Source: a virus (taxonomy: Duplodnaviria; Heunggongvirae; Uroviricota; Caudoviricetes). Taken from it: a stretch of DNA of 4,772 bases. The number at the start of each line of letters is the position of its first letter. Within the stretch, counting starts at the first letter, position 1. The translations under genes and the position numbers were made by a program. The stretch lies in IMG/VR virus record IMGVR_UViG_2645727810_000002; one strand, 5' to 3'. The notes below the pieces were generated by a model. The model ran no database searches. It saw nothing but the letters and a program-made list of their open reading frames with translations, and was not told where the DNA came from. This document shows, piece by piece, positions 587 to 4,772 of this stretch.

Positions 587-1069
587 TTATTTGATAAGAA
601 GTGAAGGTTTCCCAACTTTGAGTTGAGCACCGGGGATATTTATTCCTGCTTTTAGTTGGTGTTTGATTGCCAGTTTGTCGGCTTTAATTGTCGTTTCAAA
701 CTCAACGTATTCAGGAGGAAGGGCGCTTGAGTCGATTATTTCTACAATTTCTGACGGTTTGCGGATTGTTACCTGGTGAATACCTGCTCGAATCTTTTTC
801 TTGCCAACCATTTCAAGCGATGCCGCTATATACGCCATAATGCTGTCAATCTTATTTTGAATTACTGCGGCTCGCTCATTCAGCGACCTTGCCTCTTCCT
901 TGAGGCGTTCAGCATAACCAGATTCATTTTTAATAATGGCAAGAAGTTGCTCTATTTTATCGGCAAATTCTCCTTCCATGCCTTCTATTGTGTCAGCAAT
1001 CATCTCTGGTTCTAAATCTGAATCCATCAATTTTGCGTATTCATTGGCAATTTCATACAGTTTGCTCAC
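587..1069 (-). CDS. Gp157-family-like coiled-coil phage protein (recombination-associated; possible host-nuclease inhibitor)
   Basis: ORF-track 587..1075 uses a TTG at 1075 that abuts the SD GGAGG (1080..1076); GTG at 1069..1067 has correct 6-nt spacing, so start set to 1069. The 5' end overlaps the recT 3' end by 17 nt. Helical, charged N-terminal half and beta-rich C-terminal half, ~160 aa, adjacent to recT, as typical for Siphovirus Gp157 (PF05565) or Mu Gam-like proteins. Family call is from memory. Confidence 0.6.
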   Translation of the reverse strand: MSKLYEIANEYAKLMDSDLEPEMIADTIEGMEGEFADKIEQLLAIIKNESGYAERLKEEARSLNERAAVIQNKIDSIMAYIAASLEMVGKKKIRAGIHQVTIRKPSEIVEIIDSSALPPEYVEFETTIKADKLAIKHQLKAGINIPGAQLKVGKPSLLIK

Positions 1070-1964
1070 TGGCAACCTCCAGTTTCGCTTTGCATTCTAT
1101 GTAAATGGCTTGTACGTTCTGCTGCAATTTCATTCCAGATGTCAGGCGATATGCTTCTGCAAAATATCGCTTCAAATCATCCATGTTTTCTGCATGAGCC
1201 ATTTCATCGCAAAGAAGTTGTGCTTTATCCATTATTTCCTGCTGGCGTTTCCGTTCATCTTCGCGGATATCTTCCTCTGATTTGTGCGGCATAACTGGTT
1301 CAGTCCACACACCTTCTTCTTCGTTTAGTACGTGAATAGCACTATCAAGACGTGATGCCTTAGGCCAATACTTGCTTGCACGCTTTACGACCGTCTTTCG
1401 CGCCATCTCATTCCAGTGATTTACCCATGGTCCTTTATCGCTGAATGCTGCCTTGCTTGTTTTCCTTACAGCCTCAATTTCAGCCAGACTCATCTCTTCC
1501 GTTAGATAATCACCTGCTGGCGTCTTAACTGTGCAGTAAACACCAACAATATCACCACGATCACCGAAGGCGTTGTATTTATGGGTTGGTGCTTTATCAA
1601 GCCCGTTTGACTCATAGGTATCGTTAGCTTGAACAAGTTTTGCCTGACCCCATGAGATAACACCAGACTCCATTGCAATATGGAGCAATCCCATATAACT
1701 GATATCAAGGCACACCATGCCGTCGCGCGGAACCAGATAAGCCAGTTTGCTAGCCGGGTTTAAGGTGATACCGATCGCCGCAACATTGATGATGGCGTTC
1801 TGTGCGCTGGTTGGATTTGCCAGTGCTGTTTTAGCCAGGTAATCATTTTTCTGGAAATACTGAATTGCAAACTGGCTTTCCTTAGCCCATGTCACCGTCT
1901 GTTCAGTCAATGCTCCGCAGAATAACTGCTCTTGCTGTTTAACGAATTCAACGATATTGCTCAT
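1053..1964 (-). CDS. recT: RecT-family single-strand annealing protein (phage recombinase)
   Basis: 303-aa ORF. Segment GPWVNHWNEMARKTVVKRASKYWPK closely matches the conserved RecT motif (E. coli Rac RecT ...GPWVTHWEEMAKKTAIRRLFKYLP...). SD GGAG ~7 nt upstream of ATG 1964; start overlaps the upstream stop (ATGA). Confidence 0.9.
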   Translation of the reverse strand: MSNIVEFVKQQEQLFCGALTEQTVTWAKESQFAIQYFQKNDYLAKTALANPTSAQNAIINVAAIGITLNPASKLAYLVPRDGMVCLDISYMGLLHIAMESGVISWGQAKLVQANDTYESNGLDKAPTHKYNAFGDRGDIVGVYCTVKTPAGDYLTEEMSLAEIEAVRKTSKAAFSDKGPWVNHWNEMARKTVVKRASKYWPKASRLDSAIHVLNEEEGVWTEPVMPHKSEEDIREDERKRQQEIMDKAQLLCDEMAHAENMDDLKRYFAEAYRLTSGMKLQQNVQAIYIECKAKLEVASEQTV

Positions 1965-2272: not shown

Positions 2273-2357
2273 CTTTCTCCTGTTCTTTGTGCTGATTGAG
2301 CATTTCTTTCATCTGAAGAATGAATTCTTCGTCTGACCAGTTATCTGTAAAACTCAT
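2247..2357 (-). CDS. Possible small ORF (36 aa) overlapping the cIII stop and the start of the 103-aa gene
   Basis: ATG at 2357..2355 overlaps the cIII-like stop (ATGA); weak SD-like AAGG ~6 nt upstream; hand translation MSFTDNWSDEEFILQMKEMLNQHKEQEKDDDSDSER; stop at 2249..2247. It overlaps the next gene by 26 nt in another frame, so may be spurious. Confidence 0.2.
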   Translation of the reverse strand: MSFTDNWSDEEFILQMKEMLNQHKEQEKDDDSDSER

Positions 2358-2524
2358 GGACGGCCTTGTTGTTTCAAAATATCCCAAAGCTTTTCGAGCA
2401 AACTTTTCATTCTTGGTTGTTTAAAGTCTGCTCCGGTTAAAATATTTTTTCGTGAATGCTGTACCGATAAAATCGGGTTGAAAGGGCGAACCGATGCCGC
2501 CCCTGCAATAGCGAACTGTTGCAT
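2354..2524 (-). CDS. cIII: CIII-like protein (putative FtsH/HflB protease inhibitor stabilising CII)
   Basis: ORF-track 2354..2629 has an implausible N-terminal extension. The internal ATG at 2524..2522 has SD AAGGAG with 6-nt spacing, giving 56 aa MQQFAIAGAASVRPFNPILSVQHSRKNILTGADFKQPRMKSLLEKLWDILKQQGRP. The MQ.AIAG start, the SLLE-containing segment and the size resemble lambda CIII as I recall it. Position in the leftward operon matches lambda cIII. Confidence 0.55.
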   Translation of the reverse strand: MQQFAIAGAASVRPFNPILSVQHSRKNILTGADFKQPRMKSLLEKLWDILKQQGRP

Positions 2525-2743: not shown

Positions 2744-2899
2744 TCAACACCCCACATGTTTGTTACCCAGGATAGTTTTTTCGTACCGTTGACAAGATTC
2801 AGACCACATAAACTGACTTCCATGCGGGCGAGTTTCGATATCTGTTATCTCTCCCGGCCGAACAAAACTGGTATTCGACTTCGTTATTTTTACTTTCAT
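2744..2899 (-). CDS. Hypothetical small protein (51 aa), translationally coupled to the upstream 83-aa gene
   Basis: ATG at 2899..2897 overlaps the upstream stop (TAATG); stop TGA at 2746..2744. Hand translation MKVKITKSNTSFVRPGEITDIETRPHGSQFMWSESCQRYEKTILGNKHVGC. Not in the ORF track (short). An antisense plus-strand ORF (2756..2959) covers the same DNA and is judged the shadow. Confidence 0.35.
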   Translation of the reverse strand: MKVKITKSNTSFVRPGEITDIETRPHGSQFMWSESCQRYEKTILGNKHVGC

Positions 2900-3150
2900 T
2901 ACTCATCCCCAAGAGCTTTGCTGATTGCTGACTGTGCTTTCGATACTTCATCAGGATAATGGTCATTCCAGCTTTGCTTGTATGCCTTGTTTAGCATCGC
3001 TTGCAGAGCTTCAAGCAAATCAGGAGCTGCCTCCATCAATCTCAAATCACCACGATGTATGGTTGTATCGTCAAACGTGACATAAACACCATCATCGTTG
3101 AATCCAGTGCCAACAACACTCCACGGCCTTTTCATTCTTTCTACGGTCAT
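2899..3150 (-). CDS. Hypothetical protein (83 aa), first gene of the leftward early operon (occupies the position of lambda N but is not N-like)
   Basis: ORF-track 2899..3156 begins at a GTG that is part of the SD (GAGG 3159..3156); ATG at 3150..3148 has 5-nt spacing. Protein MTVERMKRPWSVVGTGFNDDGVYVTFDD... is net acidic with no arginine-rich motif. No family recognised. Confidence 0.6.
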   Translation of the reverse strand: MTVERMKRPWSVVGTGFNDDGVYVTFDDTTIHRGDLRLMEAAPDLLEALQAMLNKAYKQSWNDHYPDEVSKAQSAISKALGDE

Positions 3151-3322
3151 ATTCACCTCTGTTGTTTATGCCAAAAATATCTTTTTCTATATCAAAAAGC
3201 TGCTTTGCTTTTTGTGACTAAAAGCAAAAAAGCCTTCTCGCTAATGAGCAGCATTGCCGTTCATCCTGAACCCGCCGCGCTCCCGACGCATGGTTTAATG
3301 TCGCGCCGTTCGACATGGCTTA

Positions 3323-3351
3323 ACTATATTCAAAGCTATTATTGCTGTAAA
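3323..3351 (-). promoter_or_regulatory. Candidate pL-like early-left promoter
   Basis: Minus strand: -35 TTTACA (3351..3346), 17-nt spacer, -10 TATAGT (3328..3323); predicted start near 3316, giving a ~165-nt leader before the ATG at 3150. Overlaps operator-like motifs. Confidence 0.45.
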
Positions 3352-3364
3352 TAGCTATAGTTAT
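3326..3364. promoter_or_regulatory. Candidate OL operator sites (two copies/variants of the ATAGCT-NN-AGCTAT motif)
   Basis: 3351-3364 ATAGCTATAGTTAT (one mismatch to the palindrome consensus) and 3326-3339, which reads ATAGCTTTGAATAT on the minus strand (good left half, degenerate right half); centres ~25 bp apart; they overlap the candidate pL -35 and -10. Additional AT-rich palindromes nearby (AGTTAT-AAA-ATAACT at 3359-3373; AATAAC-N7-GTTATT at 3367-3385). Confidence 0.4.
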
Positions 3365-3443
3365 AAAATAACTCCTTTGGTTATTTAGTCATTGATATCT
3401 AATGTAATTTATTTTTCTTGTATGTGAGATTTGGTGTTTTTTG

Positions 3444-3476
3444 GGCAATAAAAAACCCGCAAAAAGCGGGTTTGTT
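3444..3476 (-). terminator. Rho-independent terminator immediately downstream of cI (hairpin is bidirectional, strongest for the minus-strand transcript)
   Basis: Stem AACCCGC / GCGGGTT with AAAAA loop (3454-3472). On the minus strand the hairpin is followed by TTTTTTATT; on the plus strand by TTTGTTG. Lies ~15 nt after the cI stop. Confidence 0.75.
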
Positions 3477-3490
3477 GTGGTGTGATGAGG

Positions 3491-4222
3491 TTAGTAGTCA
3501 ACTACAGACCACCAGAAGATTCTTCCGATGATCTCGATATCGCTTAGATTCTTTTCTTCTTGTGGGTATTCCAGTGAGTTAAAGCTTCTAATGCTTACCT
3601 TGTCAGGCCCTGATCGAAAGAGAATCTTAATGCGTTTCCAACCGTTCTCGTTAATGGCGTAAATCTTTCCGTCAACTATTTTCTTATCGTTGGTGTTAAC
3701 AGCAACTGTTGTTCCATCAGGAATGTTTGGCTCCATGCTGTTGCCACGAGCCGGAAAACAAACAACCCCGCTTCCATCACTGTTCGCGCCAACTCTGCGA
3801 AGGGTTGATTTGGAGAAGCGCAACATAAAGCCGTTGTGATCTTCATCAATCACCCGACCATCCCCGCATGCAAACTCAATATCTTTAAGGTAAGGAACTT
3901 CAACTTCATCACCTCTTAAAGGCGTTCCTCCATCCCATGGGTCCAAATATCCCCACGTGCTTTCATGAGGAATAGAAGATTTTGGATTATAAGGTTCAAC
4001 TCCCTCATCACGCATTGGCCCAGTCCCATCGGAAAGCCATTCCGTACGAACTCCAAGCACTTTTGATATTTCAAAAAGTTTGCGCGTATTGCGTGTTTTT
4101 CCAGACGTAAGTTTCCAGACGCTTGGCTGAGACATGCCAACAGCATTGCCAAGAGAAGCCTGAGTAAACCCAGCCTGATCCATCGCGTATGTAAGCCTTT
4201 GAGAAAAAGTATCTAGTTTCAT
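3491..4222 (-). CDS. cI: CI-like phage repressor (N-terminal HTH DNA-binding domain plus C-terminal LexA/S24-type autopeptidase domain)
   Basis: 243-aa ORF. HTH-like segment QASLGNAVGMSQPSVWKL; S24 signature G-N-S-M (putative nucleophile Ser162) and W-K-R-I-K ~35 residues later (putative general base Lys196), matching the LexA/CI/UmuD Ser-Lys dyad spacing. Divergent from a cro-like gene across an operator-rich intergenic region. Confidence 0.9.
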   Translation of the reverse strand: MKLDTFSQRLTYAMDQAGFTQASLGNAVGMSQPSVWKLTSGKTRNTRKLFEISKVLGVRTEWLSDGTGPMRDEGVEPYNPKSSIPHESTWGYLDPWDGGTPLRGDEVEVPYLKDIEFACGDGRVIDEDHNGFMLRFSKSTLRRVGANSDGSGVVCFPARGNSMEPNIPDGTTVAVNTNDKKIVDGKIYAINENGWKRIKILFRSGPDKVSIRSFNSLEYPQEEKNLSDIEIIGRIFWWSVVDY

Positions 4223-4228
4223 TCGTAC

Positions 4229-4257
4229 AACCTATAGCTACAGCTATTATTAGTCAA
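4229..4257 (-). promoter_or_regulatory. Candidate pRM-like promoter giving a leaderless cI transcript
   Basis: Minus strand: -35 TTGACT (4257..4252), 17-nt spacer, -10 TAGGTT (4234..4229); the cI ATG (4222) lies ~6-7 nt downstream of the -10, and there is no SD. Same arrangement as lambda pRM/cI. Confidence 0.45.
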
Positions 4258-4296
4258 ATACCTAAAGCTATTTACTTTCTGAATAGCTTTGGCTAT
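4234..4296. promoter_or_regulatory. Tripartite operator (OR-like): three 14-bp inverted repeats, consensus ATAGCT-NN-AGCTAT
   Basis: Site at 4234-4247 ATAGCTACAGCTAT (perfect 6+2+6 inverted repeat), 4258-4271 ATACCTAAAGCTAT (1 mismatch), 4283-4296 ATAGCTTTGGCTAT (1 mismatch); centres 24 and 25 bp apart, between divergent cI and cro. Confidence 0.6.
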
Positions 4297-4299
4297 TAT
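4271..4299 (+). promoter_or_regulatory. Candidate pR-like promoter for cro
   Basis: -35 TTTACT (4271-4276), 17-nt spacer, -10 TATTAT (4294-4299). The third operator overlaps the -10/spacer and the second overlaps the -35. The cro SD AGGAG (4318-4322) is followed by ATG 4331. Confidence 0.5.
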
Positions 4300-4330
4300 T
4301 CTGATTGTGAATTCAGCAGGAGTTATTTTT

Positions 4331-4561
4331 ATGGTCAACGAGGCTATTAAAGCGGCTATTGACTCAGTAGGAAGTCAGCAAAAGTTAGCTAATGCCTGCG
4401 GTGTTAAGCAGCCGTCTGTATGGGCTTGGTTGCATGGGAAGAAAAGGGTATCCGCTGAAAATGCCAAGCGCATTGAAATGGCTACCAATGGAAGCGTCCC
4501 TGCATACCTGATTCGCCCTGATTTATCCGCTTTGTTCCCCAATCCGAACAAAGCAGCTTAA
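4331..4561 (+). CDS. cro: Cro-like / YdaS-family HTH transcriptional regulator (76 aa)
   Basis: ORF-track 4289..4561 starts at a TTG inside the operator region; ATG 4331 with SD AGGAG 8 nt upstream is the likely start. HTH-like QQKLANACGVKQPSVWAWLHGKKRVSAENAKRIE; small size; divergent from cI. Confidence 0.8.
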   Translation: MVNEAIKAAIDSVGSQQKLANACGVKQPSVWAWLHGKKRVSAENAKRIEMATNGSVPAYLIRPDLSALFPNPNKAA

Positions 4562-4574
4562 TAAAGCAAATTTT

Positions 4575-4626
4575 TATACCGAACGGCCCGGTATACGGTC
4601 GGGTGCCCGGCGTGGTCATGGATGAC
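4575..4626 (+). promoter_or_regulatory. Stem-loop and palindrome cluster just downstream of cro (candidate nutR/tR1-like or protein-binding element)
   Basis: TATACCG-AACGGCC-CGGTATA (7-bp stem, 4575-4595) followed by a GC-rich stretch and the palindrome GTCAT-GG-ATGAC (4615-4626). No adjacent T-tract, so not a canonical intrinsic terminator. Confidence 0.35.
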
Positions 4627-4680
4627 TGTCAATGGTGCACAATAAAAAACCAAATTATTTACCTATGGAAATAGTAAGAA

Positions 4681-4772
4681 ATGGAACAAACAAGTTACAG
4701 CAAACTATCACAGCGTGACGTTGATCGCGCAGAAACAGATTTACTCATCAACCTGTCAACGCTTACCCAGCG
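4681..4772 (+). CDS. Hypothetical protein, N-terminal fragment (possible CII-like regulator; continues past the right edge)
   Basis: ATG 4681 with weak SD-like AAGAA upstream; frame open to the window end (MEQTSYSKLSQRDVDRAETDLLINLSTLTQ...). Follows cro as cII does in lambda. Identity not established. Confidence 0.35.
   Translation, partial: MEQTSYSKLSQRDVDRAETDLLINLSTLTQ

Follow-up and report, generated by a model that had tools for sequence, protein, structure and literature searches.

Does the region between two divergent genes of a temperate phage contain the operators of a lambda-style genetic switch and, if so, to which immunity do these operators belong? We considered this question for a stretch of DNA of 4,772 nucleotides (nt) from a virus of the class Caudoviricetes (IMG/VR record IMGVR_UViG_2645727810_000002), which is called here the window and is always meant at its full length. 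A preliminary description, made from the letters of the sequence, had read three palindromes in the region 4229-4331 as the right operator sites OR3, OR2 and OR1 of a complete lambda-style switch, with an operator consensus, ATAGCT-NN-AGCTAT, that suggested a separate immunity specificity. According to the analysis presented here, the palindromes are very probably the OR3, OR2 and OR1 sites of a temperate lambdoid CI/Cro switch, with an immunity specificity unlike those of lambda, 434, P22/21, HK022 and N15 and with a mechanism that we read by analogy with lambda and 434. Precisely, we found a repressor with a helix-turn-helix (HTH) and a LexA-like S24 domain, divergently oriented with respect to a small Cro-type HTH protein, three dyad sites lying over the promoters PR and PRM, and a second set of sites, the left operator (OL), at the promoter PL. 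The region controls lysis and lysogeny in an HK022-like E. coli phage, and its design is that of an ordinary lambdoid CI/Cro switch whose immunity specificity appears to be uncharacterised. The reading as a lambda-type CI/Cro switch with an operator specificity of its own is supported by the gene content, the geometry of promoters and operators, the restriction of the motif to the regulatory regions, footprinting over aligned relatives and the co-variation of recognition helices with operators.

The three 14-base-pair (bp) inverted repeats described at OR, with start-to-start distances of 24 and 25 bp, were confirmed by reading the window sequence and by counting the motif, and the two sites OL1 and OL2 are also 25 bp apart. 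The coordinates of these and of the other features are collected in the table. OR3 is the only perfect 14-bp palindrome; on the ten conserved positions of the motif ATAGC-N4-GCTAT, whose dyad axis falls between base pairs, OR1 matches as perfectly as OR3. Variants of the motif had also been noticed at a candidate OL (3326-3364); in fact, both OL1 and OL2 were found there, and a repeat finder returned 3326-3364 as a 39-nt inverted copy of 4258-4296, which links OL with OR2-OR1. By its sequence, OL consists of two clear sites and of a third that is vestigial at best, and the OL3 position is nearer to the consensus in relatives (e.g. ATTGCTTTAGGTAT in locus L023).

We searched the window for both forms of the motif and compared the counts with those of shuffled sequences. 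ATAGCT-NN-AGCTAT, with at most 2 mismatches allowed, gave 4 matches (OR3, OR2, OR1 and OL2) against 0.21 expected, and 4 or more matches were reached in 0 of 200 shuffles. ATAGC-N4-GCTAT, with at most 1 mismatch, also gave 4 matches, in this case against 0.14 expected and again with 4 or more in 0 of 200 shuffles. Every match of both scans lay inside the OL or OR regulatory regions.

Table. Positions of operators, promoters, genes and RNA elements in the window, with the operator DNA proposed for the two proteins
Feature	Position	Strand	Sequence or elements	Remarks
OR3	4234-4247		ATAGCTACAGCTAT	perfect palindrome; 0 mismatches to ATAGCT-NN-AGCTAT
OR2	4258-4271		ATACCTAAAGCTAT	1 mismatch to ATAGCT-NN-AGCTAT; one half-site weak
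OR1	4283-4296		ATAGCTTTGGCTAT	1 mismatch to ATAGCT-NN-AGCTAT; perfect to ATAGC-N4-GCTAT
OL1	3326-3339		ATATTCAAAGCTAT	3 mismatches to ATAGCT-NN-AGCTAT, 2 to ATAGC-N4-GCTAT
OL2	3351-3364		ATAGCTATAGTTAT	1 mismatch
Possible vestigial OL3	3371-3384		ACTCCTTTGGTTAT	20 bp from OL2; 4 mismatches; putative
Operator DNA proposed for CI(1-70) and Cro dimers			AATAGCTACAGCTATT	
PR	4271-4299	+	-35 TTTACT 4271-4276, 17-bp spacer, -10 TATTAT 4294-4299	consensus scan
PRM	4229-4257	-	-35 TTGACT 4257..4252, 17-bp spacer, -10 TAGGTT 4234..4229	read by eye
PL	3323-3351	-	-35 TTTACA 3351..3346, 17-bp spacer, -10 TATAGT 3328..3323	consensus scan, 10 of 12 matches
cI	3491-4222	-		243 amino acids; HTH_3 and Peptidase_S24 (Pfam), PHROG "transcriptional repressor" families
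cro	4331-4561	+	Shine-Dalgarno AGGAG 4318-4322	76 amino acids; P22_Cro/YdaS family
Intrinsic-terminator-like hairpin	3453-3473	-		just past the cI stop codon
putL-like antiterminator RNA, HK022 type	3246-3308	-		left edge of the module; alignment to annotated O276/HK022
putR-like antiterminator RNA, HK022 type	4584-4640	+		right edge of the module; alignment to annotated O276/HK022
cII, 5' part	4681-4772	+		cut by the end of the window
cIII homologue	2354-2524	-		56 amino acids; phrog_550, E 1e-22

The overlaps between operators and predicted divergent promoters, which had been described as following those of OR3, OR2 and OR1 in lambda, were recovered with the assigned PR and PRM. OR3 occupies the PRM spacer and has one base in common with the PRM -10, OR2 borders directly on the PRM -35 and overlaps the PR -35 by a single base, and three bases are common to OR1 and the PR -10. 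On the left side OL1 overlaps the PL -10 by three bases and OL2 has one base in common with the PL -35, a placement on PL that mirrors that of OR1 and OR2 on PR. Because the PRM -10 ends six bases before the ATG of cI, transcription from PRM would start at the A of this ATG (4222) or next to it, and would produce a leaderless cI mRNA. The centre of OR2 lies at about -42.5 relative to this putative start; lambda CI bound to OR2 activates PRM from about -42.5.

We gathered relatives of the locus from IMG/VR and GTDB genomes. The loci with 64-92% CI identity and the same CI recognition helix (QPSVWK) retain the three sites, with positions and spacing unchanged. In the alignment of 8 intergenic regions (alignment A1) the invariant elements were the half-sites, the PR -35 and -10, the TTGA of PRM and the Shine-Dalgarno and ATG of cro; among the aligned relatives the central four bp of OR3 and the spacers between sites vary, and OR1 is nearly invariant. 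The PRM -10 of relatives reads TAGGTT, TAGGAT, TAGGGT or TATGAT (TAnnnT), always 6-7 nt before the ATG. Because the half-sites are kept while the central 4 bp drift, the conserved consensus is, on this alignment, better written as ATAGC-N4-GCTAT or, as a 16-mer, AATAGC-N4-GCTATT. Hence the outer 5+5 bp of the consensus first proposed stand, and its positions 6 and 9 do not, as they are not conserved in the relatives.

OR2 departs from ATAGC-N4-GCTAT in every QPSVWK-helix (group A) relative examined, and OL1 and OL2 have one deviation each, except that the OL1 of the window has two against one in most relatives. The centres of OR1 and OR2 keep their A/T tracts (TTTG and TAAA), and that of OR3 does not. 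In 434 the centre of the operator tunes affinity, and the conservation of the OR1 and OR2 centres fits a tuning of this kind, although their overlap with the PR spacer could equally explain it. In one relative (L027/L064, IMGVR_UViG_3300048929_000044) OR3 has a 1-bp deletion, ATAGCAAAGCTAT (13 bp), in an operator region that is otherwise conserved; either OR3 is naturally defective in this variant or the assembly is in error.

Counting the motif in full genomes had been set beforehand as a test of the operators, and a similar density throughout the genome was not seen. We used the two complete phage genomes that carry the same module, PDP110P2 (44,134 bp) and APC_JM3.2 (39,761 bp), in both of which the sites cluster at OL and OR. 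For ATAGCT-NN-AGCTAT with at most 1 mismatch, all 4 sites are inside OL/OR. For ATAGC-N4-GCTAT, with the same number of mismatches, the sites inside OL/OR are 5 of 6 in PDP110P2 and 5 of 5 in APC_JM3.2; the six sites of PDP110P2 compare with 1.15 expected, and six were reached in 0 of 100 shuffles.

As regards the proteins, the N-terminal domain of CI (residues 6-67) matches residues 2-63 of the 434 repressor (phmmer, E 2.7e-8), with conservation of the Gln at recognition-helix position 1 and of the GKT.R..R loop. The C-terminal domain matches Peptidase_S24 of Pfam with E 3.7e-15; Ser162 (in GNSM) and Lys196 are invariant in 9 relatives and the FACGDG segment is largely conserved in them, and the probable cleavage site is FAC/GDG, with the cut predicted between Cys119 and Gly120. 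BLASTP of CI against LexA gave nothing useful, and the S24 assignment is that of Pfam together with the conserved GNSM and KR motifs. For Cro the best Pfam match was YdaS_toxin (E 1.6e-19), followed by P22_Cro (E 8e-8, above threshold), and its nearest solved relative is the Xfaso-1 Cro 3BD1. The recognition helix of CI is QPSVWK, within ..GMSQPSVWKLTSGK.., and that of Cro is QPSVWA, within ..GVKQPSVWAWLHGK..; the two are nearly the same over QPSVW and differ at position 6 (Lys in CI, Ala in Cro). The start of the repressor differs among public annotations (243 or 230 amino acids), as does that of Cro (76 or 90 amino acids). The 230-amino-acid start would remove helix 1 of the 434-like domain, and gene callers are probably misled because, as expected of a leaderless message from PRM, a Shine-Dalgarno sequence is lacking.

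On the diverged relatives (loci L060-L121) we carried out an unbiased, de novo search for the best motif composed of a 5-mer, N4 and the reverse complement of the 5-mer in each cI-cro intergenic region. Six classes were obtained. The half-site ATAGC goes with CI QPSVWK and Cro QPSVW[AS], and also with CI QPT[IV]WR and Cro QPSVS[RG]; ATAAC goes with CI QPA[IV]QK and Cro QPAV[HC]K; ACAAC with CI QAAIQK and Cro Q[AQS]AV[QYF]K; AATAC with CI QGAIQK and Cro QGAVWK; ATCGC with CI QS[TS]I[NW]K and Cro QSTICD. In all six classes there are three sites about 24-25 bp apart, and in all six the fourth base of the half-site is G where helix position 3 is Ser or Thr, and A where it is Ala. A pairs with Gln at helix position 1, and C with Lys at position 6. 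For the intergenic region of L078 this search gave no clear motif.

These pairings agree with the "evolutionary code" of Cro proteins (Hall, Lefevre and Cordes 2005), which, as far as it is summarised in PMC6649833, couples Gln at position 1 with A+2, Ser or Thr at position 3 with G+5 (Ala with A) and Lys at position 6 with C+6. With the half-site numbered from the dyad as A1 A2 T3 A4 G5 C6 N7 N8, CI satisfies all three rules and Cro the first two, its Ala at position 6 being outside the code. The pairing of Ser at position 3 with G+5 has never been seen in a Cro-DNA structure (PMC6649833). On balance we favour the interpretation that the module belongs, as one allele, to a large natural series, of at least six classes among 454 IMG/VR relatives with one CI C-terminal domain, in which the same two or three helix residues have changed over and over in both CI and Cro, along with the operator half-site, the immunity specificity of the window allele being an uncharacterised one.

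To which immunity, then, could the operators have been assigned? The preliminary description had found the palindrome different from the operators of lambda, 434 and P22, and this was borne out by comparison with lambda, 434, P22, HK022 and N15, the last of which has a look-alike operator in another register. In the literature, a full-text search with the motif, the six exact sites and the phage names found no description of this operator set; a listing in the Cordes Cro/operator database is possible. For APC_JM3.2 the publication is a brief announcement of the genome.

Judged by its likenesses, the 434 system is the closest structural analogue. The N-terminal domain of CI and the 434 repressor are homologous, with Gln kept at helix position 1 and an operator that likewise starts with A, and the loop residues matching K38, K40 and R43 of 434 are conserved; in both systems the operators are 14 bp long, their outer bases being conserved and their centre variable and presumably free of contacts, and three OR sites stand between divergent promoters. 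However, the 434 operators are ACAA-N6-TTGT (ACAA(G/T)) whereas those of the window have ATAGC, and the 434 helix is QQSIEQ instead of QPSVWK. 434 immunity was therefore rejected, the sites here being ATAGC-N4-GCTAT. Moreover, 434 Cro and the N-terminal domain of CI are paralogues (in fact, 434 Cro turned up as a match of CI and not of Cro), while the Cro of the window is of the P22-Cro/YdaS lineage, and the C-terminal domain of CI is unrelated at a detectable sequence level.

With lambda the window shares the divergent cI and cro, the tripartite OR with 24-25 bp between centres, OR1 on the PR -10, OR2 between the two -35 elements and about -42 from PRM, OR3 in PRM, the putative leaderless cI message, OL on PL, the presence of cII and cIII and a CI with an S24 domain that contains GNSM and is putatively autocleaving. 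In contrast, the operators of lambda are 17 bp long with a central base pair and those of the window are 14 bp (16 bp when extended) with the axis between base pairs, and neither operators nor proteins have significant similarity (the CI alignment has E 0.74, though it superposes the GNSM serine motif). The window also differs in having two clear OL sites, a distance between OL and OR of only about 0.9 kb and put RNAs in place of N/nut.

The resemblance to HK022 (and to O276 and HK75) concerns the flanks, i.e. putL, putR and cII, and the layout of 2 OL and 3 OR sites. The region from about 3320 to 4577 is replaced: CI has 30% identity over 77 residues and Cro 27%, the annotated HK022 operators are unrelated in sequence, and no homologue of nun is present at the matching place, where there is an open reading frame (ORF) of phrog_1273. 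HK022 immunity was rejected, since CI, Cro and the annotated operators are unlike those of HK022 and only the flanks are alike.

The hexamer ATAGCT/AGCTAT and the dyad axis between base pairs are also found in N15, phiKO2 and PY54 (PMC6649833; N15 sequence), whose 16-bp consensus operator for CB and Cro is TTATAGCT/AGCTATAA (PMC6649833). Membership of the N15 type, prompted by this ATAGCT core, was rejected on the register and on the unrelated proteins. Precisely, the half-sites of N15 are 2 bp closer, with the hexamer 1 bp out of register in each half-site, and the G is at +6 in N15 and at +5 here; the N15 Cro helix is PGAVYQ instead of QPSVWA, with no BLAST alignment between the two proteins, and for CB the identity is only 25%, over some 100 residues at the N-terminus. 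The resemblance of the operators is superficial, and by the published helix-base rules the two are read differently.

Closer in the C-terminal part of CI is the repressor "rdgA" of the Erwinia phage phiEt88, which has 55% overall CI identity and the C-terminal domain in common, but a different helix and sites of the ACAAC type. The same holds for the wider IMG/VR family, with 55-68% CI identity, mostly C-terminal, a Cro of the same family and three 14-bp sites spaced by about 24-25 bp. The helices of these relatives are QANIQK, QAAIQK, QPAIQK and others, and their operators ACAAC-, ATAAC-, AATAC- and ATCGC-N4-. Going by these differences, we regard them as sister immunity alleles and not as members of the same specificity.

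By analogy with the known switches, the locus could work as follows. In the lysogen, CI dimers would occupy OR1 and the intrinsically weaker OR2, and likewise OL1 and OL2, with PR and PL shut. Cooperativity of CI at OR1 and OR2 is probable because of their 25-bp spacing, and the fact that OR2 stays weak in the relatives agrees with a need for it. CI at OR2 would activate PRM, as lambda CI does from the same position, and PRM would yield the leaderless cI mRNA; at high levels CI would also occupy OR3, in the PRM spacer, and repress PRM. Following DNA damage, CI would be inactivated by RecA-stimulated self-cleavage (Ser162/Lys196) and PR would fire. Cro would then bind, presumably to OR3 first, and silence PRM, and the transcripts from PL and PR would pass terminators by means of HK022-type putL and putR RNAs and not of N/nut.

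Some points weigh against this reading. The binding of CI and Cro, the order of the sites, the cooperativity and the activation of PRM are features that we infer from the analogy. Because OR1 and OR3 are equally perfect, a lambda-like order of CI binding (OR1 > OR2 > OR3) is not predicted by the sequence, and the preference of Cro may differ from that of CI because its helix has Ala, and not Lys or Gln, at position 6. The PRM -10 is poor (3 of 6 matches), and PRM was missed by the consensus scan. Furthermore, the locus L067 (IMGVR_UViG_3300031110_000424) has the CI helix QPSVWK together with the Cro helix QPAVFR and ATACC/ATAAC-like sites; the mapping of helix to operator is not strictly one-to-one because the same CI helix is paired there with another Cro helix and other sites. 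L067 may be a hybrid or transitional immunity module.

It is conceivable, though unlikely, that the palindromes bind one regulator only, e.g. CI on the three sites, with Cro on a single site or on another sequence. Cro is reported to bind essentially OR3 alone in the telomere phages PY54, N15 and phiKO2 (N15 Cro bound OR3 only, with no shift of OR1 and OR2 up to about 1 uM, PMC6649833), and such a division of sites would agree with the Ala of Cro against the Lys of CI at helix position 6 and with OR3 as the sole perfect 14-bp palindrome. However, the two helices, near-identical over QPSVW, change together across the six operator classes, and on the ten conserved positions OR3 has no advantage over OR1. 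Very improbable is a module that works as a toxin-antitoxin-like pair of a defective prophage, of the RacR/YdaS type, and not as a lysis-lysogeny switch. Such a reading draws on YdaS_toxin as the best Pfam match of the small protein, which nevertheless matches P22_Cro above threshold too; the large protein does not resemble RacR but is a CI of full length whose S24 domain is intact, and the module is flanked by cIII, putL, putR and cII and is present in PDP110P2 and in the plaque-forming phage APC_JM3.2.

We give almost no weight to the idea that the repeats bind no protein and either result from the AT-rich composition of the promoters or form a hairpin in RNA or DNA. The region is in fact AT-rich, and a scan flagged at 4262-4292 a terminator-like stem of 13 pairs followed by a T-rich stretch, but only 3 of these pairs are G-C, and the stem is situated upstream of the PR start. 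It arises because OR1 and OR2, as two copies of one palindrome, pair with each other, and we rejected the terminator or hairpin reading as a by-product of the two copies. Besides, the motif is 20 to 30 times as frequent as in shuffles, recurs at PL and changes in step with the recognition helices, which is not how an artefact of structure or composition would behave, and compensatory changes in the stem that leave no dyad symmetry inside each site were not seen in alignment A1.

The borders of the switch were located by comparison with HK022, O276 and HK75, to which the flanks of the window are 93-94% identical. The homology to HK022/O276 stops at about 3320, in the region of the PL start, and resumes at about 4577, just past the cro stop; on this evidence, an immunity cassette of about 1.26 kb is swapped precisely between PL +1/putL and the end of cro. 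HK022-type putL and putR, almost the same in sequence as those of O276/HK022, flank the module, therefore antitermination is apparently mediated by put RNAs and not by N/nut. The term "lambda-style" of the preliminary description is thus right for the CI/Cro design of the switch and does not extend to antitermination, because the backbone is HK022-like, with putL and putR and no N/nut. An Rfam search of the window at gathering thresholds gave no RNA match, put elements included.

The module was found with 98-99% identity in two phage records only, those of the Wanchaivirus PDP110P2, an HK022-like siphovirus, and of APC_JM3.2, a P22-like podovirus that was isolated and forms plaques. The left arm of the window is only patchily similar to these two, and for this reason we considered the window as coming from a third mosaic backbone. 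Among complete E. coli genomes the module is present in 33 of 5426 (about 0.6%); of its 35 places in these genomes, two are classed as plasmid. The exact CI sequence, which bears a generic name in every case, turned up in several hundred contigs from E. coli, Salmonella, E. albertii and E. marmotae.

With this locus the lambdoid repertoire gains a further well-delimited immunity specificity, in a module whose exchange is exactly bounded by putL and putR; the current view of the working of such switches is not altered. What the locus chiefly contributes is a clean natural series of helix and operator alleles on which rules of protein-DNA recognition can be tested. A series of this kind could make it possible to predict superinfection immunity between prophages from sequence, and could supply orthogonal repressor/operator parts. 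If the interpretation is true, the window allele offers the pairing of Ser at position 3 with G+5, and the series as a whole is a ready-made set of mutually orthogonal repressor/operator pairs.

Some minor observations concern the surroundings of the operators. A 12-nt perfect inverted repeat, AAAATAACTCCT / AGGAGTTATTTT, is present at 3365-3376, beside OL2, and at 4318-4329, over the cro Shine-Dalgarno. We set it aside, since it lacks conservation in relatives with 82-92% CI identity and is therefore probably due to chance or recent. At the other end of the module, inside the 5' end of cII, TTGC-N6-TTGT at 4690-4703 (minus strand) is expected, from the pE/oE annotation of HK022, to be the CII repeat around the -35 of PRE.

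On the left, the first gene after PL and putL is the phrog_1273 ORF mentioned above (2899-3156, minus strand, 85 amino acids, function unknown), which stands at the position of HK022 nun and had no Pfam match; an ORF of 51 amino acids at 2744-2899 comes next. Further on, at 587-1964 (minus strand), there is a recombination module with a RecT-family protein (1053-1964) and a Siphovirus Gp157-like protein (587-1075). Finally, the immunity module is also carried by non-chromosomal E. coli records, NZ_CP158430.1 (179 kb), NZ_LT599830.1 (41 kb) and NZ_CP063485.1 (39 kb), and those of 39-41 kb may be episomal or excised phage genomes.

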